A stretch of 52,354 nt of DNA from a virus (Duplodnaviria > Caudoviricetes), in IMG/VR virus record IMGVR_UViG_3300032322_001410, positions 1 through 52,354 of that record. The stretch is one strand, 5' to 3'. Positions 7,785-51,770 of the stretch are shown piece after piece (the stretch's first letter is position 1; each line of letters starts with the position of its first letter). A program made the position numbers and the translations under genes. The notes below the pieces were generated by a model. It was not told the origin of the DNA. It was given only the letters and a program-made list of their open reading frames with translations, and searched no databases.

Positions 7785-7785
7785 G

Positions 7786-8689: not shown

Positions 8690-8693
8690 AAGA

Positions 8694-16135: not shown

Positions 16136-16144
16136 AATATGTAT

Positions 16145-16639: not shown

Positions 16640-16689
16640 ACAAATATTTAGTAAAAAATTGACTTTCACCCGTTTGTTGTCTAAATACA

Positions 16690-28114: not shown

Positions 28115-28122
28115 ATTATTTC

Positions 28123-34905: not shown

Positions 34906-34984
34906 ACGGAAAAGTATATATGAAGTTAATATACGTATAATATACTACTATTTTGAGTAAAAAGCAATACTTTTGGGTATAAAT

Positions 34985-36410: not shown

Positions 36411-36625
36411 AGATATTTTAATTTTAAGTAAGTTTCAAATTTAGAATCTTCAGTTGTTAACATCCAGATACCTTGTGTTCTTTTTACTTCCCAACCTTCG
36501 CCACCAAATCTATTATGAAAATAATATCTTCTTGGTGATATGTTTTTTCGACACCACCAATCTATAATACTTAAGTCAGAATAAGGCACAGATATCATTG
36601 TACAATATTTTTTAATTATTGTCAA
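36407..36625 (-). CDS. hypothetical protein
   Basis: ORF overlapping both neighbours. Confidence 0.6.
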   Translation of the reverse strand: MTIIKKYCTMISVPYSDLSIIDWWCRKNISPRRYYFHNRFGGEGWEVKRTQGIWMLTTEDSKFETYLKLKYL

Positions 36626-37439
36626 TTTTTAGCAAATCCTCTAGAGAATATAGCTTATTCATGTATTTGCTAGGAGTATCCAAAACACTAGATTCCATAT
36701 CGCCCGGCCTTCTAGAACCATATTTTGTTTCAAATTTAACATTGTTTGTTTCTTTGAAAAGATTTACCATTTCTAATACAGTATGACCTTTACCATGACC
36801 CAAATGTTCGATAGAATTACTTGGCTTTTCTACTGCATACATTAAAGCAGTGCATATTTCGTTTACATGAACATAATCACGCACACAAGTGCCATCCTTT
36901 GTGTTGTAGTCATCACCAAAAATAGTAAAGTAACCAATATTGGGTGCTAACTTTAAATTGTAAAACAAACCATCAGGATTAGTGGGTTCAACAACATTAC
37001 CTCCTATGATATTAAAAAATCTGAAAATAGTATAATCAATGTTATTGCTCTTACAATGTGCTAGCACACAATCTTCTGCTGCACGTTTACTTAAACCATA
37101 TGGGCTAACCATACCCACTGCTGCACCAGTACTAGCAAAAATAAAGTTTTTTGTTTTAATTCCATTCAAAACATTTACAGTACCGTTAATGTTTGTTGTA
37201 TAATAATTACTAGGTTTATATACACTTTCACTTACATTTACTAACGCTGCAAGATGAATGACCGCATCAAATTCTATATCGATACCAATTGGCATTCTAA
37301 TATCTACATTCACAAAGTTTTTAGTTTCTATTTTTGGCTCTTGAAAATCCAAACAATACACTTCATGTTTATGTTTTTCTAACATAACCTGTAAGTGTGA
37401 GCCAATATATCCTGAACTACCTGTAATTAAAATTTTCAT
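36612..37439 (-). CDS. NAD-dependent NDP-sugar epimerase/dehydratase (GalE-like)
   Basis: GSSGYIG, HLAA, ASTG, YGLSK, DGTCVRDYVHV, RRPGD. Confidence 0.9.
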   Translation of the reverse strand: MKILITGSSGYIGSHLQVMLEKHKHEVYCLDFQEPKIETKNFVNVDIRMPIGIDIEFDAVIHLAALVNVSESVYKPSNYYTTNINGTVNVLNGIKTKNFIFASTGAAVGMVSPYGLSKRAAEDCVLAHCKSNNIDYTIFRFFNIIGGNVVEPTNPDGLFYNLKLAPNIGYFTIFGDDYNTKDGTCVRDYVHVNEICTALMYAVEKPSNSIEHLGHGKGHTVLEMVNLFKETNNVKFETKYGSRRPGDMESSVLDTPSKYMNKLYSLEDLLKIDNN

Positions 37440-38779
37440 TATAATCCTTCAAAAAGTACGAAAGGTTCTTCTTCCTCAATAGGAGTAAAAAGCGAATCTT
37501 TGCTTAAATATGTATTGGTATCCGTATATGTACAAGTATATTTGTGTTTATTTGCTAACACACTTTTTGTATCATCTATACAAATAACTTTTCTATTTAA
37601 ATTTGTTATATAGTCACTGTATTTTACTGTCTCACTTTGTAAAATTTTTGCCGTATTAGATTGGCTCTGTTTAGGTCTGAACCATTCAAAACATAAATTC
37701 CATTTATCAAAGACTTTTGATTCTTGTAAGTTGTTATAATGTAGAGAGCCTTTATTATACCATTCAGTCGCAGTAACAAACATATTGTATGCACCTAATA
37801 CATCTTGTGACATATCTTTTTTGTTTGTCTTAAAAAAGAACTGCCCTTCAAAATTATCTGTCCAGCGTTGGTTTTCTAAGCAGAAAGTCGGTAATTGAAT
37901 GAGTTGTTCATAAAAAGCCATACCATAACTTTCTACTGTGCTTGGATTAAATGCAACACGACAACTGGTGATGAAATCTACTTTCTCTTGTCCAATAATA
38001 CTAATTTTAATTTGATAGTCAACACCCAACTCTTTTAATCGTGCTTCAAATTTTTTAGCACCATTCGCATTGGTCATTACACGTGCCGGAAGTTTAGTTT
38101 CTTCAATGAGTTTTAAATATAGTTCTGGGTTCTTACCTTCTTCCCAACGACCAATAAACAACACACCTTCACGATCTTTATGATATTCATTTAGTAAAGC
38201 AGGTTCAGTAATGGGAATAGGCAAATGCCATGCATTCTCATCAAACTTATTACAATTAAACTCGCTTTGTGTGCCGATAGTGATGCCACCCATCTTTAAT
38301 TGCAGTCGCATCATTTCATTAACACTATTAAGAAATGGATTGTGTAATGTATTGGGGAATATTTGACTTTCTAAGTGAGTATATGCAATAACCTGTATTA
38401 CATCTTCAAGGCCCATCGTGCTTGCAACTTGTACAGTCTCATAGGTATTACAAATTAATGCATCATACAAATTATCTTCTAATGCCCTAATAATCGAATT
38501 ACGAAAGTTTGCCATTCGTTCATAGCAATAGCTATCGCCATACATAAAAATAGCACTGTGGTTTGTGTAAACATACGATTCTTCGGGATAGATAATATTG
38601 GTGTTTAGTGATTTTACAAATTCATTGTCTTGCGGTTTTTTGTCAGTAATAATATCAACTTTAACACCGTTTTCTTCCATTAGTCTAATAAAGCTTTTTG
38701 TGAACTGCCCGATACCACCATGTGGCACTAATGTTTGATAACTTACTAAAAATCCAATTCGTTTTTTATATATTTTCAT
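37439..38779 (-). CDS. GT-B glycosyltransferase (GT4-like)
   Basis: PHGGIG, FIGRWEEGKN, PSTVESYGMAFYE. Confidence 0.85.
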   Translation of the reverse strand: MKIYKKRIGFLVSYQTLVPHGGIGQFTKSFIRLMEENGVKVDIITDKKPQDNEFVKSLNTNIIYPEESYVYTNHSAIFMYGDSYCYERMANFRNSIIRALEDNLYDALICNTYETVQVASTMGLEDVIQVIAYTHLESQIFPNTLHNPFLNSVNEMMRLQLKMGGITIGTQSEFNCNKFDENAWHLPIPITEPALLNEYHKDREGVLFIGRWEEGKNPELYLKLIEETKLPARVMTNANGAKKFEARLKELGVDYQIKISIIGQEKVDFITSCRVAFNPSTVESYGMAFYEQLIQLPTFCLENQRWTDNFEGQFFFKTNKKDMSQDVLGAYNMFVTATEWYNKGSLHYNNLQESKVFDKWNLCFEWFRPKQSQSNTAKILQSETVKYSDYITNLNRKVICIDDTKSVLANKHKYTCTYTDTNTYLSKDSLFTPIEEEEPFVLFEGL

Positions 38780-39033
38780 TGCTTCATTAATTCAAAAATA
38801 TGTGATTCGGTTGTGCGCCAAATAATAAAAACAGGATCCATATAATCACCCACTCTCGAAATGCCCCGGTAAGCATATTTTAACCAAATGCGTTTATCCG
38901 TCAATTGACACTTATGTGGTAACCATGCAAAAGTCCATTCCCAATGTGCGTTATTAATTAGGTATTTGTCAAACTCTGCCATTTTAATACCTTTAGGAGG
39001 AAGATAACTCATGCCCCACATTATGTTCCCCAT
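38776..39033 (-). CDS. hypothetical protein
   Basis: W...FAWLP.KC......IWL..AY motif. Confidence 0.6.
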   Translation of the reverse strand: MGNIMWGMSYLPPKGIKMAEFDKYLINNAHWEWTFAWLPHKCQLTDKRIWLKYAYRGISRVGDYMDPVFIIWRTTESHIFELMKQ

Positions 39034-39869
39034 TCGTTTTTAAAAAGTGGTACTTGTAATCTATCACTATAACGCAAACCATGTTTCATTGCAAGTTCTG
39101 CGACAGTTCTGTTGTTTAATGCATACACATTTTCAACACCACCAACGGGCATTAAGTATACATGACCACCAAACCCTTCTTTCTTATATAGTTCAATCAC
39201 TTCCAATGCTTCATCAACATCTTCTTTTGTTGCAACTACAAATTTTAGATATGTATGACCCAAATCTTCATACTCTCTAACAATATCTGGGCGAATAGCT
39301 TCTTCTCTAAGTTCACCACTAACACTTAGTTTTGGGCTGACACTGAATGTTAGATTATGATAACCCTTTTTTTGTGTCCATTTATACAAAAATAACTTAA
39401 AGTCTGGTTGAAGTTTTTGTGTTCCATTAGTTTCAAATGTAATGTCATTACATTTTTTCATTCTAGGGTTATCTAACAATTCAGGATACGCTCGTTGCCA
39501 GCCTAATAATGGTTCGCCTCCAGTAATAACTAAATGCTCATTGCGCCATTCTTTAAATGGTAATGAACCGATGATGGCTTCAACTATTACATCAATATCA
39601 TACATTGCACTAAGGTCTTTGAATGCAGGATGCCAACTTGCATAACTATCGCATCCTGTAGTTACAAGCGGTAATTCATGATAGAATTTGAATTCACTAA
39701 CTCGTTTTGCTATGTCATCAGCTTCAGTGCTACAGTTACCTTTAGGCATACCGAAGCCACTACACGTGAAATTGCAACCATAAGTACGAAGGAAGATACT
39801 AGACACCCCCATGAATCTTCCCTCACCTTGTATACTATAAAATAATTCTGCTACTTTAATTTTACTCAT
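39021..39869 (-). CDS. queE: 7-carboxy-7-deazaguanine synthase (radical SAM)
   Basis: E.FYSIQGEG..G..SIFLR..GCN..C, CDS, ITGGEPL, ETNGT, VSPK, LMP, RLQ. Confidence 0.9.
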   Translation of the reverse strand: MSKIKVAELFYSIQGEGRFMGVSSIFLRTYGCNFTCSGFGMPKGNCSTEADDIAKRVSEFKFYHELPLVTTGCDSYASWHPAFKDLSAMYDIDVIVEAIIGSLPFKEWRNEHLVITGGEPLLGWQRAYPELLDNPRMKKCNDITFETNGTQKLQPDFKLFLYKWTQKKGYHNLTFSVSPKLSVSGELREEAIRPDIVREYEDLGHTYLKFVVATKEDVDEALEVIELYKKEGFGGHVYLMPVGGVENVYALNNRTVAELAMKHGLRYSDRLQVPLFKNEWGT

Positions 39870-40140
39870 AGATTTTTGACCAAATTTTAAGTTTGTCTTT
39901 TTTGTTTTGTTTGTACGTATCAAGTCTAGATTGTTCCAATATACCTTGCTCTAGTAAAATATCAACTAATGCTAATACATCTCCGATTTCCATTTCTAGC
40001 ATTGCTCTATGAGTATGTTGCATATCTGATTTATAATGTGCCGTTTCTAAACCAAATCTACGAATCTTACTCACTTCGACAATTATTTCTGCGCATTCTT
40101 CTTGCAGTATGCCCAATGCTTCTTCTGTTTTTGAATTCAT
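39862..40140 (-). CDS. MazG-like nucleotide pyrophosphohydrolase
   Basis: QEECAE...SK..RFG...LE.EIGDV. Confidence 0.8.
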   Translation of the reverse strand: MNSKTEEALGILQEECAEIIVEVSKIRRFGLETAHYKSDMQHTHRAMLEMEIGDVLALVDILLEQGILEQSRLDTYKQNKKDKLKIWSKIYE

Positions 40141-40347
40141 TTATTCACTCTCAAAATTAAAATGTTGAAGAATAATTTTGTCAAAACTACTCCAACAACC
40201 TGGTGCAGGATGACCTACAATTTTTGCACATTCATTTACAATTAATTTTGCAAATTCTATATTATATTGTTTAATCCAATTATCAACATCTAACCCTGCA
40301 GGAACTTTATTCTTTGCTTGATTTGAAAATTCTTGAATAAGATTCAT
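40141..40347 (-). CDS. hypothetical protein
   Basis: EFAKLIV.ECA motif; operon packing. Confidence 0.65.
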   Translation of the reverse strand: MNLIQEFSNQAKNKVPAGLDVDNWIKQYNIEFAKLIVNECAKIVGHPAPGCWSSFDKIILQHFNFESE

Positions 40348-40355
40348 ATAATGTT

Positions 40356-40601
40356 TTAATTTTCCAGTAAAGTTTTATTTTGAATATCCCAAAAAACTTC
40401 AATAGCTGTTTTGGCATGTTCTATTGAAATATATTGACCTAAATGTTTTTCGTCATTTAGAGTAAATGTATATTGTCCAGTATATACAATGCCAAAGAAT
40501 ACTTCTTGTAAGGCAATTTTACTAGCCATGCCTACAATTTTTCCTGTAACAGCATCATAATAATAGTATCTATCAGATACACTTTTCCAATCATATTTCA
40601 T
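40356..40601 (-). CDS. hypothetical protein
   Basis: ATGA overlap with the queD stop. Confidence 0.65.
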   Translation of the reverse strand: MKYDWKSVSDRYYYYDAVTGKIVGMASKIALQEVFFGIVYTGQYTFTLNDEKHLGQYISIEHAKTAIEVFWDIQNKTLLEN

Positions 40602-41113
40602 GTAAATAAGTCCTCATTCCATTCTCTGTGACCTTCTCTGAAAGCCATATTGCTTTGTGTTTCACGTACCTCTACACGATAGCACCAAAGTCTTTCTGCT
40701 TCGCCTGGCCCCCACATATCAGGAATATACACTCCATTGACATATTTGTAAAGCATATCGGCAAGACCCTCACAACCTAATCGTGGTAAAATGGTTAGTT
40801 TAGCCATTTTCTTTTCTTGCAATAATTTAAATGTTTCTAGTTCTGGGTCATCTTGTGCTACCAATAATGTATGATCAAATTGATCTTCTAGTATCTTCTT
40901 TAATTCTTTTAGACCACCATAATCAGCAGCCCAATTACGAACATCTAGATTATCAGTACCAAAATAAAACTTCATTGAAAACGAATATCCATGAATTAAG
41001 TTACAGTGACTATCGGCACGCCACTGACGATACGCACATGGAAAACTATCATGATATTCTTTGGTACTAGTATATTTGTAAACTCTAGGTGGGTAAATCT
41101 CTTTTAAGTACAT
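40598..41113 (-). CDS. queD: 6-carboxytetrahydropterin synthase (QueD/PTPS family)
   Basis: HCNLIHGY, W..DYG.LK, FDH, GCE..A, V.V.ET; AAGGAG SD before ATG 41113. Confidence 0.85.
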   Translation of the reverse strand: MYLKEIYPPRVYKYTSTKEYHDSFPCAYRQWRADSHCNLIHGYSFSMKFYFGTDNLDVRNWAADYGGLKELKKILEDQFDHTLLVAQDDPELETFKLLQEKKMAKLTILPRLGCEGLADMLYKYVNGVYIPDMWGPGEAERLWCYRVEVRETQSNMAFREGHREWNEDLFT

Positions 41114-41180
41114 TTTTGTCTCCTTTATTAGCAAGACATGCAGAATTTAATATAGCGGGATGAATGTCACAGGCCGCTTG
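41114..41180 (-). ncRNA. candidate preQ1-I-like riboswitch / cis-regulatory RNA in the queD leader
   Basis: P1 AGCGG/CCGCU, 15-nt loop ending CAUC, AU-rich tail, loop GACAU complementary to downstream AUGUC, SD-sequestering hairpin. Confidence 0.5.
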
Positions 41181-41376
41181 TGCTTACTCTTTTGTTCCAA
41201 TTATTTATTGCATCGTCACCTGAAGAACCTAAAATAGATGCACTGCATCCCCCAGTTTCTTCAGCACAGTTTACTGACCATATAGTTTTTTGTTTATCGA
41301 TTGGATAAACTGTTTCATGCCATAAATCTTGTTGATTTAAATCATGTCCACAAAAAGGACAAGGTTTTAATTTCAT
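41167..41376 (-). CDS. Lar-like (restriction alleviation family) zinc ribbon protein
   Basis: LKPCPFCG...V.C.....C......AI..WN.R. Confidence 0.75.
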   Translation of the reverse strand: MKLKPCPFCGHDLNQQDLWHETVYPIDKQKTIWSVNCAEETGGCSASILGSSGDDAINNWNKRVSTSGL

Positions 41377-41846
41377 TGATTCAATACATTAATTATTTGG
41401 GCATCAGCTACACGTTTGCGTAAACTGCTAGAACTAAAGCTGTGGTCACGACCATTAAATATTATAGCAATGTTGCGACTCCAACAAGCTTCGTCACCAG
41501 TGAATCTTTTATCTTCATACTCAACACCTAGTATACGCACATCTAATGGCAAAATCAATAGTAAATCAATCAAATCTTGTTCAGTTTGATATACAACAAC
41601 TTCATCAACATATCGACATGCCGCTAGTTGTATTTGCCTTTCTACAATACTTTGAACAGGTTTATTTTTGGTATCTGGTCTATCAATTGTTGGGTCAGTT
41701 TGTAATCCCGCAATTAAATAATCACAATGATTTTTAGCTTCAGCAAGCATAGCAACATGTCCCGCATGAAATAAATCAAAGGTACTAAACGTGATACCTA
41801 TTTTTAATCCTTTAGCCTTTAGGTCTTTAACTTTATTGAATATCAT
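41373..41846 (-). CDS. cytidylyltransferase (TagD-like HxGH nucleotidyltransferase)
   Basis: TFDLFHAGH, YVDEV, G.EY, R...FSSS.LR. Confidence 0.88.
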   Translation of the reverse strand: MIFNKVKDLKAKGLKIGITFSTFDLFHAGHVAMLAEAKNHCDYLIAGLQTDPTIDRPDTKNKPVQSIVERQIQLAACRYVDEVVVYQTEQDLIDLLLILPLDVRILGVEYEDKRFTGDEACWSRNIAIIFNGRDHSFSSSSLRKRVADAQIINVLNQ

Positions 41847-41991
41847 TTTTATCTTTTTTATCTTTTTTAAGTGGGCAATCACATTCATATCTACCTTGAT
41901 TGCAATTACCAGTACATCCAGGTATATTCATTGTAACGTATATTCCTAAGTATACAATAACTAAGCCAAGAATTATTAATACTATAGTCAT
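41833..41991 (-). CDS. 52-aa membrane-anchored Cys-rich peptide (below cutoff)
   Basis: ATG overlaps folE stop; MTIVLIILGLVIVYLGIYVTMNIPGCTGNCNQGRYECDCP... Confidence 0.6.
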   Translation of the reverse strand: MTIVLIILGLVIVYLGIYVTMNIPGCTGNCNQGRYECDCPLKKDKKDKNDIQ

Positions 41992-42665
41992 TTCCCCATC
42001 CTTGCAATACTTAGAAATTCATTTCTTGCTGCTGGGTCTGTTTTAAATCCACCACCTAGTCGAACTGTCACAGTAGAACTACCTGTATCCTCTACACCAC
42101 GACTCTTAACACAATAATGTTGTGCGTCAATCATAACCGCAACATCTTCTGTTTCGAGAATGTAACATAGTGTGTGAAAAATTTGTTCAGTTAATCGTTC
42201 TTGTATCTGTGGGCGTTTGCTGAAATATTCAACAATACGATTAATCTTACTAAGACCTAATACCTTTTGCTTAGGTACATATGCAACTGTGGCAAGTCCG
42301 TCAATGATAACAAAGTGATGTTCGCAATTACTTTGTACACTTACATTGCGGTCGCACACCATTTCATTGTAATGCATTTTGTTATCAACTGTTGTACATT
42401 TAGGGAATGCCTCATAATCAAGTCCCCAAAAGATTTCATTGACATACATTTTTGCTACACGTTTTGGTGTTTCTGCTAGACTATCATCATCTAAATCAAG
42501 TCCTAGAACTTGCATGATATATTTGAAATGTTTTTCAATCTCATTGATCTTGTCTTTTCTATCCATGTTAATATTGGTAGTAGGAGTTTCAACTCCCATT
42601 TTGACAAGATATTCATGAACCTTTTTACCTAGTTCAGGGTCTGTTTTTGTTTTATTGTAACTCAT
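41988..42665 (-). CDS. folE: GTP cyclohydrolase I
   Basis: TPKRVAK, CEHH, GLSKINR, RPQIQERLT, H.C...RGV. Confidence 0.96.
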   Translation of the reverse strand: MSYNKTKTDPELGKKVHEYLVKMGVETPTTNINMDRKDKINEIEKHFKYIMQVLGLDLDDDSLAETPKRVAKMYVNEIFWGLDYEAFPKCTTVDNKMHYNEMVCDRNVSVQSNCEHHFVIIDGLATVAYVPKQKVLGLSKINRIVEYFSKRPQIQERLTEQIFHTLCYILETEDVAVMIDAQHYCVKSRGVEDTGSSTVTVRLGGGFKTDPAARNEFLSIARMGK

Positions 42666-42667
42666 CT

Positions 42668-42732
42668 TGATAACCCTCCGTTGTGATGGTTTGTTTTTGA
42701 AGTTTGCAACCGTTGTGTTGCATAATTATTTA
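42668..42732 (-). promoter_or_regulatory. TAAATA plus tandem CACAACGG hairpins in the folE leader
   Basis: UGCAAC-ACAACG-GUUGCA hairpin, then AACC-AUCACAACGGAG-GGUU overlapping the SD. Confidence 0.55.
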
Positions 42733-42932
42733 TCTTTAGTTGTAGTCTCTGCATTTTTCTTACTGGGGAGTGGCTGGTAATCAACAAACATTCCGGTCCA
42801 CTTCCAATTAACGGGCTTCCAATATTTTGCAAACATGTTGTTAATAAAAATTACAACGATGGTCACTACGCAGAAACCCAATCCAATAAGTATTGTTTCT
42901 ACTAAAAAACTTGCTGCACTATTAATTTCCAT
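42726..42932 (-). CDS. small membrane protein
   Basis: TM segment followed by INN.F.KYWKP. Confidence 0.65.
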   Translation of the reverse strand: MEINSAASFLVETILIGLGFCVVTIVVIFINNMFAKYWKPVNWKWTGMFVDYQPLPSKKNAETTTKDK

Positions 42933-42933
42933 T

Positions 42934-44133
42934 TTAGTATTTGCCTTCTTTTGTGTGTTTTCTATAATCCGTACTCATACGTAAATACTGTTCACCTTGC
43001 CCAGTAATCACATCACAAATACGATCAATTGTTTTATCATTATAATCACTTATTTTACCCATATTGATATGTGGGTGCTTTAGTAATTTAAACAACTTAT
43101 TTAATGCATCATGAATTGACCAAGGAATGTAAAGCCTATCGCTGTCATTAGCAAAAGTTTCAGGAAAGCTGCGATAAGCAGGATAAAGCACATTGCAGCC
43201 CAAAGTGTCTGCCTCTGATACAGTATTACTGACCCAGTCTTGTAAAGCACAGTTAAACAATACCCTAGTATCATTAAGTAAATTATAGTAATCATTTTTT
43301 TCTAAATCTTCATATACAACTAATTTGCCTTCGTCTACTAGACGCTTTGTTCTTTCCATATAACTACTATTGTTTGATTTTAATTTGCTACCACTGAATA
43401 GAGCAAATTCAATTTCATCTTGTTCGTAGCCTTCCCAATATGCCATCTTACTAAGACGATGAAATTCTTCAATCAAGTCCATATAGAAGTCAGGTTGTTT
43501 TTCTTGATCCCAACGTGCTGCGAAACCTACACGTAGTTTACGTTGATGAAAAGGTTTTAATTCTTTTACTCTACTACGAACCTCATCTTTACCAAATGCT
43601 AAACCAGAAATATTATAGATAGGAGCAGTCCATCCAGCAATACGCATATGAGCAACCATTTCCTCGTTTGAGGCGAGAACTCCGGTAACAAACTCATTGA
43701 CCATGCTTTCGTAATATCCCATCCACTTCGCCATGCCCCATACATGAACAAAGTCATCAGGATCAATGGACTGAGCAAGACACCTAACAAAAACACGGGG
43801 ACGCTTATCAGCAGGGACTTGGTTAAATATGTAAGGTAAGCTTTCGATACCGGGTTGAAACATGTCCTCAAAGTAGATAACATCCTCATTACTAATTTCT
43901 CCGTTTTTATGACAACGTACAAGATTCATCATTTGGCTCATACCAAAGTAACTACGACCATGTGCATCTAGTACTTGTCCTGTAACTATATCTTGGCTAG
44001 TCGTAAGTGTTTCACCATGCATTAAACAATAAGTAAAATTTCTTTTATCGAATACACGTTCATTCCATTCTGTTAATTGTAATGTATACCGTGCCTTGTA
44101 TGGTTCAAGGCCCATATAATACAGTTTACGCAT
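42934..44133 (-). CDS. GT-B glycosyltransferase
   Basis: FAARWDQEKQP, LFNCALQDWVSNTVSEA..LGC....P....FPE. Confidence 0.8.
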   Translation of the reverse strand: MRKLYYMGLEPYKARYTLQLTEWNERVFDKRNFTYCLMHGETLTTSQDIVTGQVLDAHGRSYFGMSQMMNLVRCHKNGEISNEDVIYFEDMFQPGIESLPYIFNQVPADKRPRVFVRCLAQSIDPDDFVHVWGMAKWMGYYESMVNEFVTGVLASNEEMVAHMRIAGWTAPIYNISGLAFGKDEVRSRVKELKPFHQRKLRVGFAARWDQEKQPDFYMDLIEEFHRLSKMAYWEGYEQDEIEFALFSGSKLKSNNSSYMERTKRLVDEGKLVVYEDLEKNDYYNLLNDTRVLFNCALQDWVSNTVSEADTLGCNVLYPAYRSFPETFANDSDRLYIPWSIHDALNKLFKLLKHPHINMGKISDYNDKTIDRICDVITGQGEQYLRMSTDYRKHTKEGKY

Positions 44134-44515
44134 CCTCTTCCCTTTTTGTAATTTCCAAATCACAATCAATGATCATTTCACAATCACTAAAAAGCCAACC
44201 ATGTTCTTCAAGGTCTAACCAACTATTACCTTCCTCAAAGAATTCTTCTAGCCAAGCTTGAGCTTCCTCGTCTACTTCATCATACTCACGTTCTTCCCAA
44301 CAACCATCGTCGGTTTCCACTAATTCAGTTTCATAACCGCAGTTATAAATATCTACACCTGCTTCAATATCAGGAGGATTATCGTCCTCAGTGTATACAA
44401 TAAATTCTCCCCAACGCCAACCAGTTTCAACAATAAGAGTATTATCGTCTTTTGTAATATGTTGACGTTCGATAATAGATTTTTTCCAAGTGGGTTTAAC
44501 TGTCCAAGTCGCCAT
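44126..44515 (-). CDS. acidic hypothetical protein
   Basis: ETGWRWG motif; operon packing. Confidence 0.75.
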   Translation of the reverse strand: MATWTVKPTWKKSIIERQHITKDDNTLIVETGWRWGEFIVYTEDDNPPDIEAGVDIYNCGYETELVETDDGCWEEREYDEVDEEAQAWLEEFFEEGNSWLDLEEHGWLFSDCEMIIDCDLEITKREEDA

Positions 44516-44517
44516 AA

Positions 44518-44724
44518 TTATGCCTTTGAATCTTCTATCCAGTTGTCTTTAGGGTGTTTTCCTGCTAGCTGTTTTGTATGTTGTCTATATGCAAATTGTC
44601 GCATATCATACAAGTGTGCTTCATCAAACTTGTATCCATAGTCTACACAAAAATCCTTATATTTTTCCAGATCGTCGAAAATTTGACGTACTTTAGGGTT
44701 AGGTTGAAAATTGTATTTCTTCAT
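44518..44724 (-). CDS. hypothetical protein
   Basis: AAGGA SD before MKKYNF; IFDDL..Y..FC..YGY.FDE..LY. Confidence 0.7.
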   Translation of the reverse strand: MKKYNFQPNPKVRQIFDDLEKYKDFCVDYGYKFDEAHLYDMRQFAYRQHTKQLAGKHPKDNWIEDSKA

Positions 44725-44734
44725 TTTATTTCCT

Positions 44735-45169
44735 TTAAATTTCAAGTTGTTGATAAGGTTTAGTTAAATTATAATGAATTTCGCATCCGTTTTCATCATC
44801 TTCGGACACATTGATTATTACATTTCGGTTTGGATACCGATCTGCAATTCTTAAGTACAAGTCATCGGCAATCATCTCGCATGATTTGTAGTCCAATGAC
44901 AGACAATTTTGTTCCCCTGAATACAATGCTTCCAAGTATCGCTTGAACTGGATGAACTCGATATCACGGTCATTGTGGTATACGTCGATTGACACCCTGA
45001 AGTGAAAAATATGGCGATGGGGATAACCAAGAAAGCTAACATCACTGAGTTTAGGTTCTTCCAATGCTGCAGGATATTTGTGTATACCTTCTTTCTGAAA
45101 AGTAACCCATATCTGTCTTTTTGCCTCATGTTTAATTCTTTCAATTTTTTCTCGTTCACTTTGGATCAT
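44735..45169 (-). CDS. second QueD/PTPS-like T-fold protein
   Basis: F..EG.H, HRH.FHF.V.I, D.EF..FK, SCE.IA, V.V.ED.ENG layout matches the PTPS fold. Confidence 0.6.
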   Translation of the reverse strand: MIQSEREKIERIKHEAKRQIWVTFQKEGIHKYPAALEEPKLSDVSFLGYPHRHIFHFRVSIDVYHNDRDIEFIQFKRYLEALYSGEQNCLSLDYKSCEMIADDLYLRIADRYPNRNVIINVSEDDENGCEIHYNLTKPYQQLEI

Positions 45170-45375
45170 CTATCATCCCCGTAATCTAAATGTTCATGTT
45201 CGTATTCCCATTGCAACTTGTTTAGCCTACTTATTTCATCTTTATATTTCAGTTTTTGTTTTTTCATTTCTGAAATTTTATCCTTGTCATAGGTTGGATT
45301 TTTTTCAGCATCAGCAATTTGCTTATCTAACAAACGGTGTGTTTCGGTTAATGTTGCAATTCTATTTTTGTACAT
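45166..45375 (-). CDS. DUF465/YdcH-like small coiled-coil protein
   Basis: H..LD.QI......MKKQKL..KDEI. Confidence 0.75.
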   Translation of the reverse strand: MYKNRIATLTETHRLLDKQIADAEKNPTYDKDKISEMKKQKLKYKDEISRLNKLQWEYEHEHLDYGDDR

Positions 45376-45387
45376 AAATGAACTCCT

Positions 45388-46950
45388 TTAATCAAATGAA
45401 ACAAATTGGTCAATTGTAGAATCAATAGTAGAACTTTTTTCTTTTTTAGGTTTTTGTTTTTTTGTGTTTGATATTAGATTTTGCTGAGTTTCTTCTTCAA
45501 CTAGTTTGTTATACATTGTTCTTGCATTGACCGTTTTTTTACCACTAAACCCTTGACTACCTGCCTGCATTTGTTCCCAAAGTTTGCTATACTTTTCTAC
45601 AACATCTAAACTTTCTTGTTTTGTTTTTTGAGCAAAAACTTCATTAATTATTTCTTTAAATTTTTTTTCAATAAATTTATGTCTTATCATTGCGGGTATA
45701 ATATCGTTATCATACCTTCTATTTGCTTCTTGCACCGCTGCTATATGTTGATAAACATTATGTGCTTGTATAAGTGTGTAACTTAGTGTGTCCCAACTTG
45801 TTTTTGTTTCTTTTCCATGTTGCCCAATAAAACCAACACCCCTGTAACATACGTCTTTAATCAATAGTTTATCAACAATAGGACTATTTGTAAATACATT
45901 ATGGACTTTATCGTCCAAAACAGCATCAACAAATTTCCTATTATCTATTGCATATTTTTTATCTTCTGCCGTTTTAGACATTCTATAAGACCATTTACTA
46001 TCGTGTTCAATACTTGTTTCACAATATGCAAGACCTTTTGCAGCACTGAAAAACGGACTGGCGCAATCAAATGTAATTTGTAATTTTGAGTTATGATATT
46101 TTCTAATGGCTTTTTGTATGTCTGTAAACAATACAGCATATTCCAAAATACTTACGCCCAAACAGTGAATCAAATCATGCTTGCCTTCTTGTAATAGTCC
46201 ATCATAGATAATATCAATTAATCTAATAAGTGTTAAATGTATATCAATCTTTGTTTGACCACCAAAAGCCCAACCGTTGAAATGTTTCTCAGGGTATAAA
46301 TTTGGATCACAATATTTTTTCATTTCTTCATACCATTCATAACTTTCAGTATGATTTGTTCCTTGTAGAACATTTAGAAATTTACATTTACCACTACGGT
46401 TATTAATAAAATATTCGTTATTAATATGTGTAGCAGTTATAGCATCTTGAATATTGTGAATGTTATGCAATGGTATAGCATCTGTGTTTAAGAAACTTTG
46501 ACTAGGTACATCTAAACACATACCATAATCCATGTATGTGTCCATCCATTGTAGTACAGCCTTACGTTTCTCTAACGCTTTAGGACAATTAGGATCTTTC
46601 CAATCAGCTGGCCATTGACCTTTTAAAATCTGAAATCCACCACTATCACCTAATAAGAAAGTGCCACTCTCTCTTTCATAAACAATACTCTCACTATTGC
46701 CTTGCTTTTTAGGATCAAGTTCAGCATGTCCTGCGCTATATAATGCCCACTTATATGGAAACAATGCCTTTTGACTGTTTAGAAAATTTAATGATTCTAA
46801 GTCAGAAATACCTTGAGGTATACGATCACTAGGAAAATAGTTTTCACCCTTACGTTGCTTACCCAATCCAGTAATATAAAACGTACTGAGTGCAGGTAAG
46901 AATAGTGCCCAATCGGGATTTTGTTTTTCTGTTAAATTATCTTTTTCCAT
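45388..46950 (-). CDS. TGT-superfamily guanine transglycosylase (DpdA-like)
   Basis: DSGGFQ, LDVP, VLQG, AFGG, H.LG, FDCASP TGT barrel motifs; sits with folE/queD/queE. Confidence 0.8.
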   Translation of the reverse strand: MEKDNLTEKQNPDWALFLPALSTFYITGLGKQRKGENYFPSDRIPQGISDLESLNFLNSQKALFPYKWALYSAGHAELDPKKQGNSESIVYERESGTFLLGDSGGFQILKGQWPADWKDPNCPKALEKRKAVLQWMDTYMDYGMCLDVPSQSFLNTDAIPLHNIHNIQDAITATHINNEYFINNRSGKCKFLNVLQGTNHTESYEWYEEMKKYCDPNLYPEKHFNGWAFGGQTKIDIHLTLIRLIDIIYDGLLQEGKHDLIHCLGVSILEYAVLFTDIQKAIRKYHNSKLQITFDCASPFFSAAKGLAYCETSIEHDSKWSYRMSKTAEDKKYAIDNRKFVDAVLDDKVHNVFTNSPIVDKLLIKDVCYRGVGFIGQHGKETKTSWDTLSYTLIQAHNVYQHIAAVQEANRRYDNDIIPAMIRHKFIEKKFKEIINEVFAQKTKQESLDVVEKYSKLWEQMQAGSQGFSGKKTVNARTMYNKLVEEETQQNLISNTKKQKPKKEKSSTIDSTIDQFVSFD

Positions 46951-47342
46951 TAGATTGCTTGCATCGCCACAGGTTCATCACTATGTGATTCTTTTTTAAT
47001 CAACGATTTAATCATTTCAAGTTGATTTTGTTTCTCTTTGATTTGATTTACTAAATCATTGACAGCATGGTTAGTTTTAGCAAGTTCTTCTAACTCCATT
47101 TCTTCATGCATTTTTTTATTTGCCCATTCAATTATTTTTTTAGTGTTAGAATCTAAATCTACTTGAACAACATTATTTGGTATACTGTGCCATGCCATTC
47201 CATCACTAACTGCGAAACCTTGCGCCATAGAATCCCACTTAATCATACCTGCTCCGGAGAAAGTATTATTAATTTGGGGCATATGTTGATTTGTATTAGA
47301 CACAGTGATATGACTGCTACCTGAATATATGTTTTTAATCAT
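46950..47342 (-). CDS. hypothetical protein
   Basis: 130-aa ORF coupled to both neighbours. Confidence 0.7.
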   Translation of the reverse strand: MIKNIYSGSSHITVSNTNQHMPQINNTFSGAGMIKWDSMAQGFAVSDGMAWHSIPNNVVQVDLDSNTKKIIEWANKKMHEEMELEELAKTNHAVNDLVNQIKEKQNQLEMIKSLIKKESHSDEPVAMQAI

Positions 47343-48073
47343 TTTTGTTGTGCTGGAATCAAATAAGTATAGACTGCTAATCCTGTGTCAACTACAATTT
47401 CACAGGCACCCTGATTACTAATTCTCATTTTCTTGTCACCTACCAAACTAAGGATGTTACTGATTTCTTTAACTGGCCACTTCCATCCATGTGTAAGTAC
47501 ATTATCAACATTGCTTTGAAAAACAAAACTACCATTATGAGTAGAAGGGTCACCAAAATAAACTTTTAACTCGTTATTCTCAGTAATCATTCTAAACTTA
47601 TCTTCTTCACTGTTAGCTGATGCTTGCTTTTTCAAACGCATAATGCCATTTACCGCTGGTTCAAATTCTAACTGATATGTTGGTTTATGTAATTTAAAGT
47701 TTTTAACCTTTTCTTGAATAATCGATTCTGACATTAAACGATATTCATTTTTAAAGTCTTTAGTTGCTGTGTGAAAAGAAATGCTTTCTGGAACTAATTT
47801 TCCATTCTCGTCTGTTTTCTTGTTAACCATAATGATAGACGCATCATCGTATTCCTCAAAACTTAAAATAGTTTTTAGTTTTCCTAAATTAGGCATACCG
47901 AATGTACCTATAAATTCAGGATGAGGAGTTTTGAATACACCAGTAATAACCAAAGTTTTGTCAGCAGAAACCGCATGAATTTCTGTTACTGTGTCTGAAC
48001 CTAATATTTTTATTTGCTCAATCGTTTCAATTACTGAAACGTTTTTAATAATGTCATTTAAAATGTTTTTCAT
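47339..48073 (-). CDS. putative DNA polymerase sliding clamp
   Basis: 244 aa, alternating beta/alpha pattern ending Y.YLIP, directly downstream of polB; fold call is inferred. Confidence 0.55.
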   Translation of the reverse strand: MKNILNDIIKNVSVIETIEQIKILGSDTVTEIHAVSADKTLVITGVFKTPHPEFIGTFGMPNLGKLKTILSFEEYDDASIIMVNKKTDENGKLVPESISFHTATKDFKNEYRLMSESIIQEKVKNFKLHKPTYQLEFEPAVNGIMRLKKQASANSEEDKFRMITENNELKVYFGDPSTHNGSFVFQSNVDNVLTHGWKWPVKEISNILSLVGDKKMRISNQGACEIVVDTGLAVYTYLIPAQQK

Positions 48074-48151: not shown

Positions 48152-50860
48152 TTACCCGAAGGTAATAAAAGATTCAAATGTTGACCTTATATTAGTACTA
48201 TCTCGTATGTTCCAATCTAGCACCCCCAATAAATTGTCTATCTTCTCATCTACAAGTGTTGTTTCCATTGCTTCATCATCAAATGGAAGTTCAACAAACC
48301 ATTTAGGTAGTCTTAACTCGTCTGTCGGATACGCAATACTTGTAAAGTTTAATGGATTACTTCTAAGTTTACATACAACAATTTTCATACCATCAACAAT
48401 TTTCTGACTGTAATTGTCACCATGTACTTTGCGTAGATAGTTCCAATTCAATGCGGCTCTAACATGACCAGGCATATTTGCTTTACCTGTTGCGCTAGTA
48501 GCTTCTTTTTCACCATACATAGTTAAATTGTTTACTGATTTAGGACTACCCTTTGTCCAACTATCTTGTTCACTTAGTTTAGTTTTAAAAGTTTTTACTA
48601 CTTCAACAATTTCATTACGGTCTTTACCTGCCAAAACCATTTCTAAAACTTGCATCAGAAAATCTTGAACTTGTTTAGGAGTATCAGCACGTTTTAGGTC
48701 TAGACCCATTGCTTTAATCTTACCCATGCTGCCATTAGTATCTAGACGTTTTCCTTCTTTGTCATAGATATTAATAGCATAACGTTTTTTAGTAATGAAT
48801 AATGTTCTGTCACCGATCAATTCACGTCCAGCTTTAATAATCGAACCATTCTTTCTCGGACAATGAAATGCACGTTCCATAAATGATGGGAAGCTATCAT
48901 TAATTTGATCTGCGATATTATCGTAAAGTGTTATGCATAGTTCTTTACTCCAGTTAATTTCACCTTTCGCAATATCATCTTTGAGTACAGGTAAGGCACT
49001 GAAATAACAACTATCAGTATCTCCATATACGATTGCAGTGCCATCATGGTTGTATTCACCTGCAATACATTCATTTATTTGGCTCATCATATGTTTTGTA
49101 ATCTGACGACCACTTAATGTAACGCTTTGACCAATACGTTTATCATAAAATCTACAATGCTCATTTAATAGTGCGCCATATGCAGAGTTGAGTAGAATCT
49201 TTCGGACTAATTGACGTTTATCCCAATACTCTTTGTCATAGTCGGTTGTTGATTCTTTTAGTTTCTTCTGCATATCTTTACGATCACTATACCAACGTGT
49301 GAGTAGTCCGGGAATCACGCCTTCTTGCTCGTAAGTAAAGATAGTACCATTAGCACTTAGTATGTATGGATTGTTACTATCAAAAACAAATTTCCATATT
49401 TCTGCCGCACTCATTTCTATGCTACGACCATCTTCATAATCAATGGTTAGCATTGTACCACGTTCTTGGTTCATGATTGCTGCGTATTCTAAACTACCAA
49501 ACAATCCTTCCCACAAGATACTACCAGTAACGCCTTCATCTTCGTTCTTTCTGCGTTTCTTTTCTTTTGCCAAACGCATACTTTTTTCATACATGTATTG
49601 ATTAGTTAAGGTTTGTCTAACTTGTCCGACAATGGTTTCTGGCGCCATGTTAAGAGCGCGGATCGCTGACGGGTAGAGACTGTTGATATCGACTGCCCCA
49701 ACGTATTCGTGAATGCCCCTTTTGGGCGTAGCAACATAGGCACCTGCTGCTTGCTGTTCGTCATCTGTTTCCTTTCGTAATTTATCAGGTACAACAACAC
49801 CTCGTTCATGTGCTTCATTAAAAATTGCCATTTCAATCATTGCCACCGAACCCATAACAGTCGGAAGCAACACAGTATTTTCATGTGCAAGTGCGTTAGC
49901 TAAATCTAAAAATTTTAATTTATTATGAATCTTAACCAACAGCATTGTATCTTGTCGATTGTATTCTAAGAATTTTTTAAAATCTTTATTATAAAGTTGG
50001 TCTAATGTGCCTTCATATTGAGTTTTATTTTCACCAACTTCCATTTCACCAATGAAATCTAGCTTGTAACTATGTCTGGATTCGTAGTTATACTTTTTAT
50101 ATAACTGCAAATAGTCCATATGTATTCGCCCAATTAAATCATATGTGGTTTCTTCTTTACCAAATCGTTCATATGTACGTGCTTTAGGCAATTGACCGAG
50201 CAGACAAAATTTACGTGTATCATCTTTGCTCATTACTCTAGTGACACGATTTACCATATATGGAATATCATATCCTTCTGAGTTCCAACCAGTCAATACA
50301 TCTGCATCTTCAATCAACTGAAAAAATGTTTCGAACATTTCTACTTCTGTTTTGAACGACAAACAATTTTCAAACTCATTTGTTATTTCTTGTGCAGTTT
50401 CAACACTCATATGTTTCGGCTTGATACACAATGTAATCAATTGGTCTAGCCAATCAAGATACATTGATATTGCTGTTACCATATTGAATGGATCACTAGT
50501 TGGACTAAACCCTTTGTCAGGATCAAAGTCAACTTCAATATCAAAGAAACATGTATGTAACTTTGGAGCTTCTACATTAAGATAATTTTCACTCAAACAA
50601 CGAAAAACTACATTAACATCACTTTCAAATAATTTTTTATTTGAATGTATTCGTCGCTCTTTTTCAAACTCGCTACGTTTACGTGTACTGAACCTACTAA
50701 CAGGATCGCCATACATACTACGATGCTTACCTTTTAGGTCACTATAGTAAAATACATAATTGGCAGGATATTCACGATAGGCTCGTTTGCCCTCAGGCGT
50801 TCGTTCTACGACATAGATTTTATCACCATCTCTGTCGTGCAATGCATCAACGTATGACAT
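48152..50860 (-). CDS. family B DNA polymerase
   Basis: Exonuclease FDIE, WN...YD, YN..D; polymerase DINSLYPS, K..LNS.YG, YGDTDS, KKRY. Confidence 0.97.
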   Translation of the reverse strand: MSYVDALHDRDGDKIYVVERTPEGKRAYREYPANYVFYYSDLKGKHRSMYGDPVSRFSTRKRSEFEKERRIHSNKKLFESDVNVVFRCLSENYLNVEAPKLHTCFFDIEVDFDPDKGFSPTSDPFNMVTAISMYLDWLDQLITLCIKPKHMSVETAQEITNEFENCLSFKTEVEMFETFFQLIEDADVLTGWNSEGYDIPYMVNRVTRVMSKDDTRKFCLLGQLPKARTYERFGKEETTYDLIGRIHMDYLQLYKKYNYESRHSYKLDFIGEMEVGENKTQYEGTLDQLYNKDFKKFLEYNRQDTMLLVKIHNKLKFLDLANALAHENTVLLPTVMGSVAMIEMAIFNEAHERGVVVPDKLRKETDDEQQAAGAYVATPKRGIHEYVGAVDINSLYPSAIRALNMAPETIVGQVRQTLTNQYMYEKSMRLAKEKKRRKNEDEGVTGSILWEGLFGSLEYAAIMNQERGTMLTIDYEDGRSIEMSAAEIWKFVFDSNNPYILSANGTIFTYEQEGVIPGLLTRWYSDRKDMQKKLKESTTDYDKEYWDKRQLVRKILLNSAYGALLNEHCRFYDKRIGQSVTLSGRQITKHMMSQINECIAGEYNHDGTAIVYGDTDSCYFSALPVLKDDIAKGEINWSKELCITLYDNIADQINDSFPSFMERAFHCPRKNGSIIKAGRELIGDRTLFITKKRYAINIYDKEGKRLDTNGSMGKIKAMGLDLKRADTPKQVQDFLMQVLEMVLAGKDRNEIVEVVKTFKTKLSEQDSWTKGSPKSVNNLTMYGEKEATSATGKANMPGHVRAALNWNYLRKVHGDNYSQKIVDGMKIVVCKLRSNPLNFTSIAYPTDELRLPKWFVELPFDDEAMETTLVDEKIDNLLGVLDWNIRDSTNIRSTFESFITFG

Positions 50861-51143: not shown

Positions 51144-51770
51144 TTAATTATACACATCACTTGTAGTAAATGCAAGTTTTTGTTTATCCAATACTAGCTT
51201 TTTAACTAGTTTTGGTAATCCTGGGTTAACATGTAAAGCATGTGGCATCAACTCATGTCTGATATAATTGCGAATGTATTTGGTATCCGTATTAGATTGG
51301 TCTTCGATCCAACCACATTCGTGTCGTTCTGCCCAATCGATTAAATCATGTTTAGTTGTAGTAAGAAATGGGCGTAATACATTGTTTCGTTGTGCAGGGA
51401 TAACTTTTGGATTACCATGCATACATGACCAAATATATGTTTCAACACAATCATCTAAATGATGCGCAGTAACAACTGGATCTTTAAACGATTCTAAAAA
51501 TTTATATCGCTCATCTCTCCAAAACTCTTGACTACTCACACCATCGGGATAATCTTTAGTAAGATGACCAACTACTAATGGCAATTCTCTAGCACTAGCA
51601 AAGTCTTGTACAAACCGATGTGCCAATTCACTTGTTTTTGTACCATGATGAAAGAATGCCAATGTGACATCGTGTTTTCTATGCAAGAAATCGGCAATGG
51701 CTACACTATCCACGCCACCGCTAAATGCGATAACTAATTTTTTGGGTAGTGGGAAGAGTAATTTGATCAT
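51144..51770 (-). CDS. tilS: tRNA(Ile)-lysidine synthase, catalytic domain only
   Basis: SGGVDS PP-loop, R..RY.F, TAHHLDD..ET, RPFL, D.SN....Y.RN.IRH. Confidence 0.88.
   Translation of the reverse strand: MIKLLFPLPKKLVIAFSGGVDSVAIADFLHRKHDVTLAFFHHGTKTSELAHRFVQDFASARELPLVVGHLTKDYPDGVSSQEFWRDERYKFLESFKDPVVTAHHLDDCVETYIWSCMHGNPKVIPAQRNNVLRPFLTTTKHDLIDWAERHECGWIEDQSNTDTKYIRNYIRHELMPHALHVNPGLPKLVKKLVLDKQKLAFTTSDVYN
51147..51175 (-). promoter_or_regulatory. sigma70-type promoter TTGCAT-N17-TATAAT upstream of dsbA-like/polB
   Basis: 17-nt spacer, located in the 3' end of tilS. Confidence 0.55.

Follow-up and report, generated by a model that had tools for sequence, protein, structure and literature searches.

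A DpdL-type 7-deazaguanine DNA-modification module with a conserved GT-B glycosyltransferase in an uncultured jumbo phage: a candidate route to a sugar-bearing base

Virus record IMGVR_UViG_3300032322_001410 encodes, on the minus strand between positions 36612 and 46950, a run of genes for the synthesis and insertion of a 7-deazaguanine, interleaved with genes for sugar transfer. The window referred to below is that whole record, 52,354 b in length. We read the run as a DpdL-type, QueC-independent 7-deazaguanine DNA-modification module, placed among the replication genes of an uncultured jumbo phage, in which the modified base may also receive a sugar. Taken as a whole, this sugar-bearing explanation falls slightly short of an even chance in our judgement. 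The core system, DpdL-type replacement of guanine (G), is already known. What is new is a virus-specific glycosyltransferase (GT) family of the GT-B type, usually accompanied by an epimerase, that occurs across unrelated lineages and with two DpdA types. A first-pass annotation of the sequence had listed FolE, QueD, QueE, transglycosylase, GT, epimerase and nucleotidyltransferase genes in this run. Every gene it named is present as a minus-strand open reading frame (ORF) where it was placed, and family models and structure comparison agree with the list. Its broader claim, a deazaguanine DNA-modification module with an enzyme of the tRNA-guanine transglycosylase (TGT) family inside the replication module, is likewise supported by the enzyme identities and by synteny. 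The central genes are these:

45388..46950, minus strand: DpdA-like DNA-guanine transglycosylase of the TGT superfamily, a divergent type of 520 amino acids (aa) common to PA5oct and Phosso (structure, catalytic residues)
44735..45169, minus strand: DpdL, QueD paralog and proposed 7-carboxy-7-deazaguanine (CDG) decarboxylase, 144 aa (motif, homology)
42934..44133, minus strand: GT-B glycosyltransferase, here called GT411, conserved partner of DpdL and DpdA (fold; the ORF extends to 44169 and homologs start at Met13)
41988..42665, minus strand: FolE, GTP cyclohydrolase I (Pfam 1.2e-60; NCBIfam equivalog 324.7 bits, cut-off 202)
40598..41134, minus strand: QueD, 6-carboxytetrahydropterin (CPH4) synthase with the variant motif CxxxHGY (PTPS 9.6e-16; PHROG QueD-like 8.3e-37)
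39021..39923, minus strand: QueE, divergent radical S-adenosylmethionine CDG synthase (PHROG QueE-like 2.8e-52)

FolE, QueD and QueE make CDG. The window QueE is divergent by family models: Pfam Radical_SAM reaches only 19.4 bits, and all NCBIfam QueE models stay below their cut-offs. In two relatives (G005, 79541-80398; G007, 222857-223714) the QueE match lies within a 648-aa read-through frame containing one TAA, probably two adjacent genes in the same frame.

By its sequence, the 44735-45169 product is DpdL. It had been described as a second QueD-like protein, a label that holds but missed the DpdL identity. DpdL is a QueD paralog in which the CxxxHGH motif has become LxxxHRHxF, and it is the proposed decarboxylase of CDG to 7-deazaguanine (PMC10516641). 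The window protein carries LGYPHRHIF at residue 47, which corresponds to the published LxxxHRHxF. By tblastn it matches DpdL of ACP17 (57% identity, 1e-39) and of Cellulophaga phage phiST (gp040; 33.6% identity, 2e-8); the PA5oct DpdL is 54% identical to it, and Phosso was also matched. The protein matches phrog_17812 at 2.6e-38, and an alignment of DpdL and QueD sequences (A3) places it with other DpdLs, apart from the phage QueDs (CxxxHGY). Among 50,697 phage records, 29 were DpdL-positive by tblastn, and these were grouped into 13 lineages. Published DpdL phages have DpdA, FolE, QueD and QueE and lack QueC, according to the text of PMC10516641. In phiST, which has FolE, QueD, QueE, DpdL and DpdA3, the same article reports that deoxyguanosine is wholly replaced by the deoxynucleoside of 7-deazaguanine (dDG), at 302,000 per 10^6 nucleotides by liquid chromatography–mass spectrometry. 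DpdL also occurs as the C-terminal part of longer proteins, in Bakedbeans gp176 (383 aa; 7227-8378 of locus L015) and MA9V-3 (293 aa; 7473-8354 of locus L018). Their N-terminal extensions showed no similarity to phiST DpdA3 by BLAST (E 0.69 and 0.56).

The window is a fragment of an uncultured jumbo phage with a genome of roughly 350 kb. The record is linear, with a GC content of ~35% and a CheckV completeness of 15, so that the absence of a gene within it proves nothing by itself for the whole genome. Related contigs reach 374,314 b, in a relative (G004) that is rated 100% complete and has QueE. Window DNA or close relatives were found in assembled runs labelled lake or freshwater metagenomes, with shares of 0.24-0.47 in nine runs besides the probable source (21 runs in total, all assembled contigs; shares below 0.2 were left out of the habitat reading). 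Megablast of the entire 36612-46950 run gave no match among the phage records. Related loci were collected with an alignment of the GT411 family (A2), which yielded at least 557 GT411 relatives, and the analysis used 80 loci from IMG/VR. We call loci informative if they reach at least 3.5 kb upstream of the GT gene (n = 67) or at least 9 kb downstream of it (n = 37).

QueC was searched for with PF06508 at a cut-off of 22 bits. Nothing exceeded this in the window, in the complete PA5oct (286,783 b) or Phosso (469,473 b), or in G004. QueF was found in none of the window, G004, PA5oct, BUCT-ZZ01 and ACP17; a sub-threshold window match of 17.9 bits lies inside FolE, which has a related fold, and was rejected. 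The earlier statement that the window has neither QueC nor QueF therefore holds, and for queC the absence extends to these larger genomes. Three lower QueC signals in relatives were set aside. One, of 12.3 bits in G003, falls within the gene homologous to window 51144-51770, a PP-loop gene located upstream of polB. The others, of 17.1 and 16.7 bits in two ORFs of ~220 aa in G005 and G007, cover only the C-terminal 50 positions. All three are below the cut-off, and we judged none of them to be QueC. The annotation had gone on to infer from the missing queC that CDG or a derivative is the inserted base. CDG as the inserted base is not supported by this absence: DpdL is the published candidate CDG decarboxylase of a queC-independent route to dDG. 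The missing queC is explained by this known pathway and is not evidence for CDG as the final base.

The 45388-46950 product belongs, by its predicted fold, to the TGT superfamily, and it is not a canonical tRNA TGT. An AlphaFold2 model (predicted local distance difference test, pLDDT, 89.4; predicted template-modelling score, pTM, 0.86; residues 467-520 disordered) was compared with known structures. All 50 Foldseek matches listed are tRNA-guanine transglycosylases (best E 3.2e-7). All 50 matches listed by VIA-align are tRNA-guanine or archaeosine transglycosylases, with Z ~19-20 over ~300 residues; for 2ash, 307 of 361 residues align at Z 20.3 and a root-mean-square deviation (rmsd) of 4.4. 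By hhalign the protein aligns with E. coli Tgt (86% probability, E 4.9e-6), pairing its DSGGFQ, LD-V-P (LDVP) and FDC with the catalytic Asp motifs of Tgt, whose Asp residues we take to act in catalysis and on the substrate. These residues, D102, D147 and D295, are invariant across 55 homologs (alignment A1). The claim of a TGT-family enzyme is thus sustained at the superfamily level, with a fold Z of ~20 and three catalytic Asp kept. The hhalign alignment has a gap at the LAVGE segment of Tgt, which lines the pocket for the 7-substituent. Sequence searches of Pfam, PHROG, NCBIfam and PDB gave no match, and a profile of 55 sequences did no better. PF01702 has no match in the window protein and matches 3 of the 55 family members weakly (best E 0.042), and no Pfam domain is present in the 120 family members listed. 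The family is large: of 8000 candidates scored, 7178 pass E 1e-3, and it spans at least 819 clusters at 50% identity. In one relative (G002; 7565-9110 of locus L006) the gene is broken into two ORFs that overlap (7565-8281 and 8235-9110), which may be a frameshift or an assembly error.

A comparison with the DpdA subfamilies gave a mixed result: a profile-level link to enzymes grouped with DpdA2, no BLAST link to DpdA2 itself and a weak link to DpdA3. By hhalign the window protein aligns over ~170 columns with the 424-aa enzyme of ACP17 (96.3%, E 1.5e-9) and the 416-aa enzyme of BUCT-ZZ01 (93.4%, E 2.5e-7). Both of these fall with the annotated transglycosylase of X1 and with DpdA2 of VH7D and nt-1. 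DpdA2 inserts deazaguanines into DNA in E. coli (PMC10516641). With tblastn the window protein had no match to the nt-1 or VH7D DpdA2, and Foldseek matched it at E 2.7e-9 to an nt-1 protein that is not confirmed as the nt-1 DpdA2. For phiST DpdA3 (CGPG_00065, gp042; 259 aa), hhalign gave 64.6% over 81 columns only and Foldseek an E of 1.2e-2. The order polB, clamp-like gene, small conserved gene, TGT-like gene is common to the window and PA5oct, and it recurs in the 80 related loci wherever the upstream reach suffices (polB present in 64 and the clamp gene in 66 of the 80). Gene position and the DpdA2 link point to DNA, not tRNA, as the target; taken with the fold and the catalytic residues, they suggest that this enzyme exchanges bases in DNA.

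GT411, by its predicted two-Rossmann fold, is a GT-B enzyme. Its start is probably Met13 of the 411-aa ORF, the homologs being ~391-400 aa long. With an AlphaFold2 model of pLDDT 78.2, the top Foldseek matches were retaining enzymes of families GT4 and GT5 (glycogen synthase, PimA, BshA and MshA) at E ~1e-8 to 1e-9 (best 3e-9). The wide VIA-align search gave PimA at Z 22.5 (rmsd 3.6, 317 aligned) and BshA at Z 21.6, and the Atlas neighbours are viral GT1/GT4 clusters. The Pfam GT1-type C-terminal domain has no match in window GT411, and PF00534 appears in 2 of the 120 homologs listed. The BUCT-ZZ01 ortholog, 60% identical, passes Pfam Glyco_trans_1_4 (28.3 against 27 bits). GT411 has D-x7-E at residue 311 (numbering of the 411-aa ORF). 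The PA5oct homolog, in its hhalign alignment, has E-x7-E, which we take to be the motif of GT4-like GT-B enzymes. The first-pass annotation had named two GT-B enzymes. For GT411 the fold supports this; the second, GT446, has weak, mutually consistent sequence matches, to Glycos_transf_1 at 3.2e-4 (below cut-off) and, as a profile against PDB, to TreT (0.018) and WlaC (0.053). The other sugar genes of the run are:

37439..38779, minus strand: second, accessory GT-B-like glycosyltransferase, GT446, 446 aa (weak but mutually consistent matches)
36612..37439, minus strand: GalE-like NAD-dependent nucleotide-sugar epimerase (Pfam Epimerase 4.9e-34)
41373..41888, minus strand: cytidylyltransferase-like nucleotidyltransferase, sugar or polyol activation (PF01467 2.9e-11; in 30 of 80 related loci)

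The epimerase is short (275 aa), and it passes the Pfam family as the GalE-like label implied; the NCBIfam galE equivalog is not reached (163.7 bits, cut-off 262.3). The product of 41373-41888, annotated as TagD-like, does belong to the nucleotidyltransferase family, with only the general PF01467 and TIGR00125 thresholds passed. The specific equivalogs are far off, TagD at 53.4 against 165.4 bits and rfaE-II at 75.5 against 181.5. Two related loci (L004, 8596-9342; L006, 9992-10738) have an extra cytidylyltransferase-like ORF between the genes for the 75-aa and the acidic protein described below, besides the copy after FolE.

The sugar genes belong to the cluster as a conserved component and are not chance neighbours. 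All 67 GT411 loci with at least 3.5 kb upstream have both the TGT-like gene and DpdL. Of all 80 loci, 77 encode DpdL, the remaining three ending short upstream, and the nine of 80 that lack the TGT-like gene and/or DpdL are all cut-off loci. Downstream (n = 37), QueE is found in 35 and the epimerase in 33, while the nucleotidyltransferase and GT446 are both present in 16 and both absent in 19. The predicted co-occurrence of both GTs with this transglycosylase is thus seen for GT411 and varies for GT446, which is present in two of five large relatives. The clade has two variants: a one-GT type, often with the epimerase between GT and FolE (L034, L044, L045, L052; G004), and the two-GT type of the window. 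In cultured phages, tblastn with GT411 found five records, all five among the 29 DpdL-positive ones. The A2 profile, which is specific in that it did not match the other GT of the same loci, found GT411 within a few kb of DpdL in PA5oct, ACP17, X1, BCSR5, Phosso and BUCT-ZZ01, six of the 13 cultured DpdL lineages. GT411 adjoins or nearly adjoins DpdL in these six, which differ in DpdA type and host. In PA5oct the family member is EST35_0317 (hhalign 96.6%, E 5e-10), and in ACP17 it is ASD50404. BUCT-ZZ01 has a tight operon of QueE, phosphoribosyltransferase (PRTase), QueD, FolE, GT, DpdA (DpdA2-like), DpdL and GT, in which orthologs of both window GTs are present (60% identity for GT411, 39% for GT446).

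We propose the following pathway. FolE, QueD and QueE would make CDG (step 1), and DpdL would remove or otherwise process its carboxyl group (step 2). The 520-aa TGT-fold enzyme would then exchange guanine in the phage DNA, after replication, for the resulting deazapurine (step 3). We regard the pathway up to base insertion as very probable. GT411 (42934-44133) may add a sugar to the deaza base or its precursor, with the GalE-like epimerase providing the UDP-sugar (step 4). In the window variant, the second GT and the nucleotidyltransferase may add a further residue (step 5). The outcome would be a yet-undescribed DNA base that protects against restriction. That the sugar step acts on the deazaguanine pathway is, to us, not quite an even proposition, and a glycosylated deazaguanine in DNA is a plausible candidate that we hold tentatively. 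We are equally tentative about a wider reading, that glycosylated 7-deazaguanine is made by a DpdA-like enzyme, DpdL and this virus-specific GT-B in many phages (freshwater jumbo phages, PA5oct-like phages, ACP17, X1/BUDD, Phosso, BCSR5 and the cyanophage BUCT-ZZ01); mono- and diglycosyl variants would then be set by the second GT and the nucleotidyltransferase. A sugar on the final DNA base is the simplest reading. It would also explain an earlier result, that E. coli with ACP17 dpdL and dpdA alone produced no dDG, for which the authors suggest that further enzymes are needed (PMC10516641).

Several points weigh against a sugar on the base. One is chemical: 7-deazaguanine has no C7 hydroxyl or carboxyl and hence no evident sugar acceptor, and the structural neighbours of GT411 are retaining O-glycosyltransferases, ordinary enzymes of glycans and small molecules. 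Nor does the fold separate enzymes for DNA, small-molecule and glycan acceptors, T4 alpha-GT (Z 18.5) and a pterin GT (Z 20.3) lying among generic GT-B enzymes with a top Z of 22.5. GT411 was not found in seven of the 13 cultured DpdL lineages: it is absent from the whole records of RHph_I1_18, Bakedbeans, Ahp1, D479 and MA9V-3 and from the phiST and Roos loci (loci alone searched). In phiST, with its plain dDG, the locus searched spans 12.3 kb, and this case means that DpdL systems function without a sugar step. Members of the clade can do without GT446 and the nucleotidyltransferase, and GT446 is missing from the complete G004 as well. PRTase genes in the PA5oct cluster (15946-16380 of locus L001; PF00156 2e-11) and the BUCT-ZZ01 cluster (16303-16764 of locus L010; annotated xanthine-guanine PRTase) hint at a nucleotide-level step in some lineages. 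The earlier steps have weak points too. In sequence comparisons the TGT-like protein stays short of every curated family threshold. It also lacks the CxCxxC motif (its Cys are at 122, 145, 189, 214, 263, 296, 310 and 368, and no Cys is invariant in A1); CxCxxC...H is presumably the zinc site of tRNA-guanine transglycosylase proper. Nucleoside chemistry for a GT-positive phage was not found in the literature searched. Decarboxylation by DpdL is itself a proposed activity (PMC10516641).

The strongest alternative is a plain dDG system as in phiST, with the sugar genes acting on another DNA base, on virion proteins or on host envelope glycans, and travelling with the early or replication module. 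We think this unlikely, if a serious contender. The phiST precedent itself, the lack of an evident acceptor on 7-deazaguanine, the variability of GT446 and the nucleotidyltransferase, and the ordinary glycan and small-molecule enzymes around GT411 in structure space all speak for it. For another base to be the acceptor, a hydroxymethylase could serve, and G004, G005 and PA5oct each have one thymidylate-synthase-family gene that could in principle be one. Their scores against the thymidylate synthase model, however, are those of ordinary ThyA (258-354 bits). No such gene was found in ACP17 or BUCT-ZZ01, so that a hydroxymethyl-pyrimidine acceptor made by such an enzyme is unavailable there. The distribution of GT411 argues against it further: the gene lies beside DpdL in six cultured lineages with varied DpdA types and hosts and in 67 of 67 informative metagenomic loci, and tblastn found it in no DpdL-negative phage record.

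A base that keeps its carboxyl follows the version of the first-pass annotation, in which CDG is inserted into DNA and decorated. The carboxyl would then be the site, as a glycosyl ester or as an amide by way of a PP-loop ATPase. We consider it improbable. The carboxylate is a chemically usable handle, and PP-loop or PAPS (3'-phosphoadenosine 5'-phosphosulfate)-reductase-like genes occur within the clusters, or close to them, in the window clade, X1 and BCSR5. However, DpdL, present in nearly all GT411 loci and in every informative one, has carboxyl removal as its sole proposed role, even if that role is a proposal only. The PP-loop protein matches PF01171 (1.8e-33), not QueC, and its gene was not found near DpdL in PA5oct, ACP17 or BUCT-ZZ01. 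We know of no ester-forming enzyme among the GT4-like neighbours of GT411. On the supporting side, the CDG deoxynucleoside (dCDG) has been found in viral DNA, and DpdA2 can insert CDG at low efficiency (PMC10516641).

We give a similarly low probability to a sugar step that precedes DNA and acts on a free intermediate. Its product would be a glycosylated pterin or deazapurine metabolite, or a PRTase would open a nucleotide route with incorporation by polymerase, and the DNA base itself may be sugar-free. FolE and T-fold enzymes also make up the pterin pathway, and the UDP-glucose:tetrahydrobiopterin glucosyltransferase of Synechococcus PCC 7942 matches GT411 closely (5zer, Z 20.3, rmsd 3.6, 312 aligned), with the caveat that this Z is in the generic GT-B range of the VIA-align list. 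PRTase genes lie within the PA5oct and BUCT-ZZ01 clusters and a MazG-like gene in the window; family scans of the window cluster found no PRTase. A DpdA-like transglycosylase in every informative locus argues for base exchange in DNA, and it is not evident what phages of Pseudomonas, Acidovorax and Xanthomonas would do with a pterin glycoside. Finally, a TGT-like enzyme that modifies host or phage tRNA is barely credible: the best solved structural matches are all tRNA-guanine transglycosylases, but no tRNA gene was found in the window, the gene sits within the replication module in association with DpdL, PA5oct DNA resists restriction at G-containing sites, and the protein has a gap at the pocket segment and no zinc motif.

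A sugar on the deazaguanine base, the reading we prefer, can be set beside systems already described. The window shares with phiST the queC-free enzyme logic, the DpdL family, a position beside the replicative polymerase and a nearby MazG-like gene. It differs in having the divergent 520-aa transglycosylase in place of the 259-aa DpdA3 and in GT411, which the 12.3-kb phiST locus lacks; that locus has a small ATPase gene instead. The closest likeness among cultured phages is PA5oct, a Pseudomonas jumbo phage (Wroclawvirus). There EST35_0316-0322 comprise a TGT-like protein of the same 520-540-aa family (34% identity to the window), followed by a GT411-family GT, DpdL, an epimerase-domain gene and QueE, downstream of polB and a clamp-like gene and with no QueC. 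Unlike the window, PA5oct has a PRTase in the cluster and no GT446; neither a full-length epimerase match nor, in its 25-kb locus, a match to the window nucleotidyltransferase was found. A 2025 END-nuclease preprint reports that PA5oct DNA resists five restriction enzymes and, on the basis of QueE and a PTPS gene, infers that its G is modified (PMC12191111). In the text available to us, it appears not to have noticed the TGT-like, DpdL or GT genes of PA5oct, and it is the only place where we found a modified G in this phage discussed. DpdA2 (Vibrio phages nt-1 and VH7D; ACP17, X1 and BUCT-ZZ01 by similarity) shares with the window protein the TGT fold and the DSGG motif and has DNA as its substrate, and the ACP17, X1 and BUCT-ZZ01 enzymes are associated with DpdL and the same GT family. 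The window protein nonetheless has no BLAST-level similarity to it, its links being at the profile level only.

Two further systems put sugars on modified bases. In the T-even phages a GT-B enzyme glucosylates an already modified DNA base, hydroxymethylcytosine, and T4 alpha-GT matches GT411 structurally (1y6f, Z 18.5). The T-even base is derived from C, that proposed here from G, and there is no evident hydroxymethyl handle. T-even DNAs occur in mono- and diglucosylated forms, which the one-GT and two-GT variants of the window clade recall. Animal tRNA contains mannosyl- and galactosyl-queuosine, in which a sugar sits on a 7-deazaguanine derivative, and one of the enzymes is reported to be GT-B/GT4-like. 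There the substrate is RNA, and the sugar is attached to the cyclopentenediol hydroxyls of queuosine, which need preQ1 and QueA-type steps that are absent here.

The remaining genes of the run and its upstream flank are the following:

39862..40140, minus strand: possible MazG-like pyrophosphohydrolase, a weak call (18.9 bits, cut-off 22; E 0.0019; present in 9 of the 80 loci)
44518..44745, minus strand: conserved 75-aa protein between DpdL and GT411 (75 of 80 related loci; no family match)
47339..48073, minus strand: clamp-like protein (no Pfam match; 29% identity, 3e-29, to a sliding clamp of Phosso annotated by its depositors)
48152..50860, minus strand: family B DNA polymerase, polB, heading the module (8.2e-43)
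51144..51770, minus strand: PP-loop ATPase of TilS/TtcA type, 208 aa, just upstream of polB (PF01171 1.8e-33)

Both the MazG and the clamp calls correspond to real ORFs; the former stays below its cut-off and the latter comes by way of a single annotated homolog. The PP-loop protein is not QueC, though of the same enzyme class, and it is a possible member of the pathway. Its matches to QueC-like and PAPS-reductase PHROGs are weak and N-terminal only, and it is 85% identical in relatives. PAPS-reductase-like PP-loop genes also occur within the deazaguanine clusters of X1 and BCSR5, and X1 has a cytidylyltransferase-family gene 8 kb downstream.

Other genes lie within or around the run. The minus-strand ORF 44126-44515 encodes a very acidic 129-aa protein (39 D/E against 9 K/R) of no family, and 41167-41376, also minus, a 69-aa Lar-like restriction-alleviation protein at 28.1 bits, just below its 28.6 cut-off. 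Both products could be anti-restriction factors. DNA repair and replication genes flank the cluster on the minus strand (33895-36410 and 26783-28129), with matches to UvdE UV endonuclease (6.8e-37), 5'-3' exonuclease/FEN (9.4e-20) and ATP-dependent DNA ligase (PHROG, 1.6e-94). Farther away are a cysteine-dioxygenase-like protein (8915-9442, minus; PHROG, 3.8e-38) and two plus-strand paralogs (1103-2026 and 2805-3812) with matches to the middle part of phrog_2295, a family of unknown function.

To our knowledge, the sugar-bearing DNA bases described so far are pyrimidine derivatives. We found no description of a glycosylated deazaguanine in DNA in the literature, with the supplementary tables of PMC10516641 outside the search, and DpdL together with a deazaguanine appeared only in that article; BUCT-ZZ01 appeared only in a review. 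The article itself already reports dCDG and dDG in viral DNA, and none of the eight deazaguanine DNA bases in its text (Cui et al., PMC10516641) bears a sugar. The proposal of a sugar-decorated novel base is strengthened by comparative genomics and the conservation of GT411, with no defined acceptor on plain 7-deazaguanine. If true, no purine-derived base bearing a sugar would have been described in any DNA before. The close tie of this GT to DpdL and DpdA in unrelated phages points to a ninth deazaguanine derivative, a bulkier one. Both the TGT-like family (at least 819 clusters at 50% identity) and the GT family are highly abundant in metagenomes, and Pfam has a model for neither. Several GT411 carriers are cultured, and PA5oct is studied for therapy, so that the reading is testable directly in cultured phages. 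Such a base would be relevant to the evasion of restriction and CRISPR, to the targets of modification-dependent nucleases (END family), and to the sequencing and engineering of the phages that carry it.

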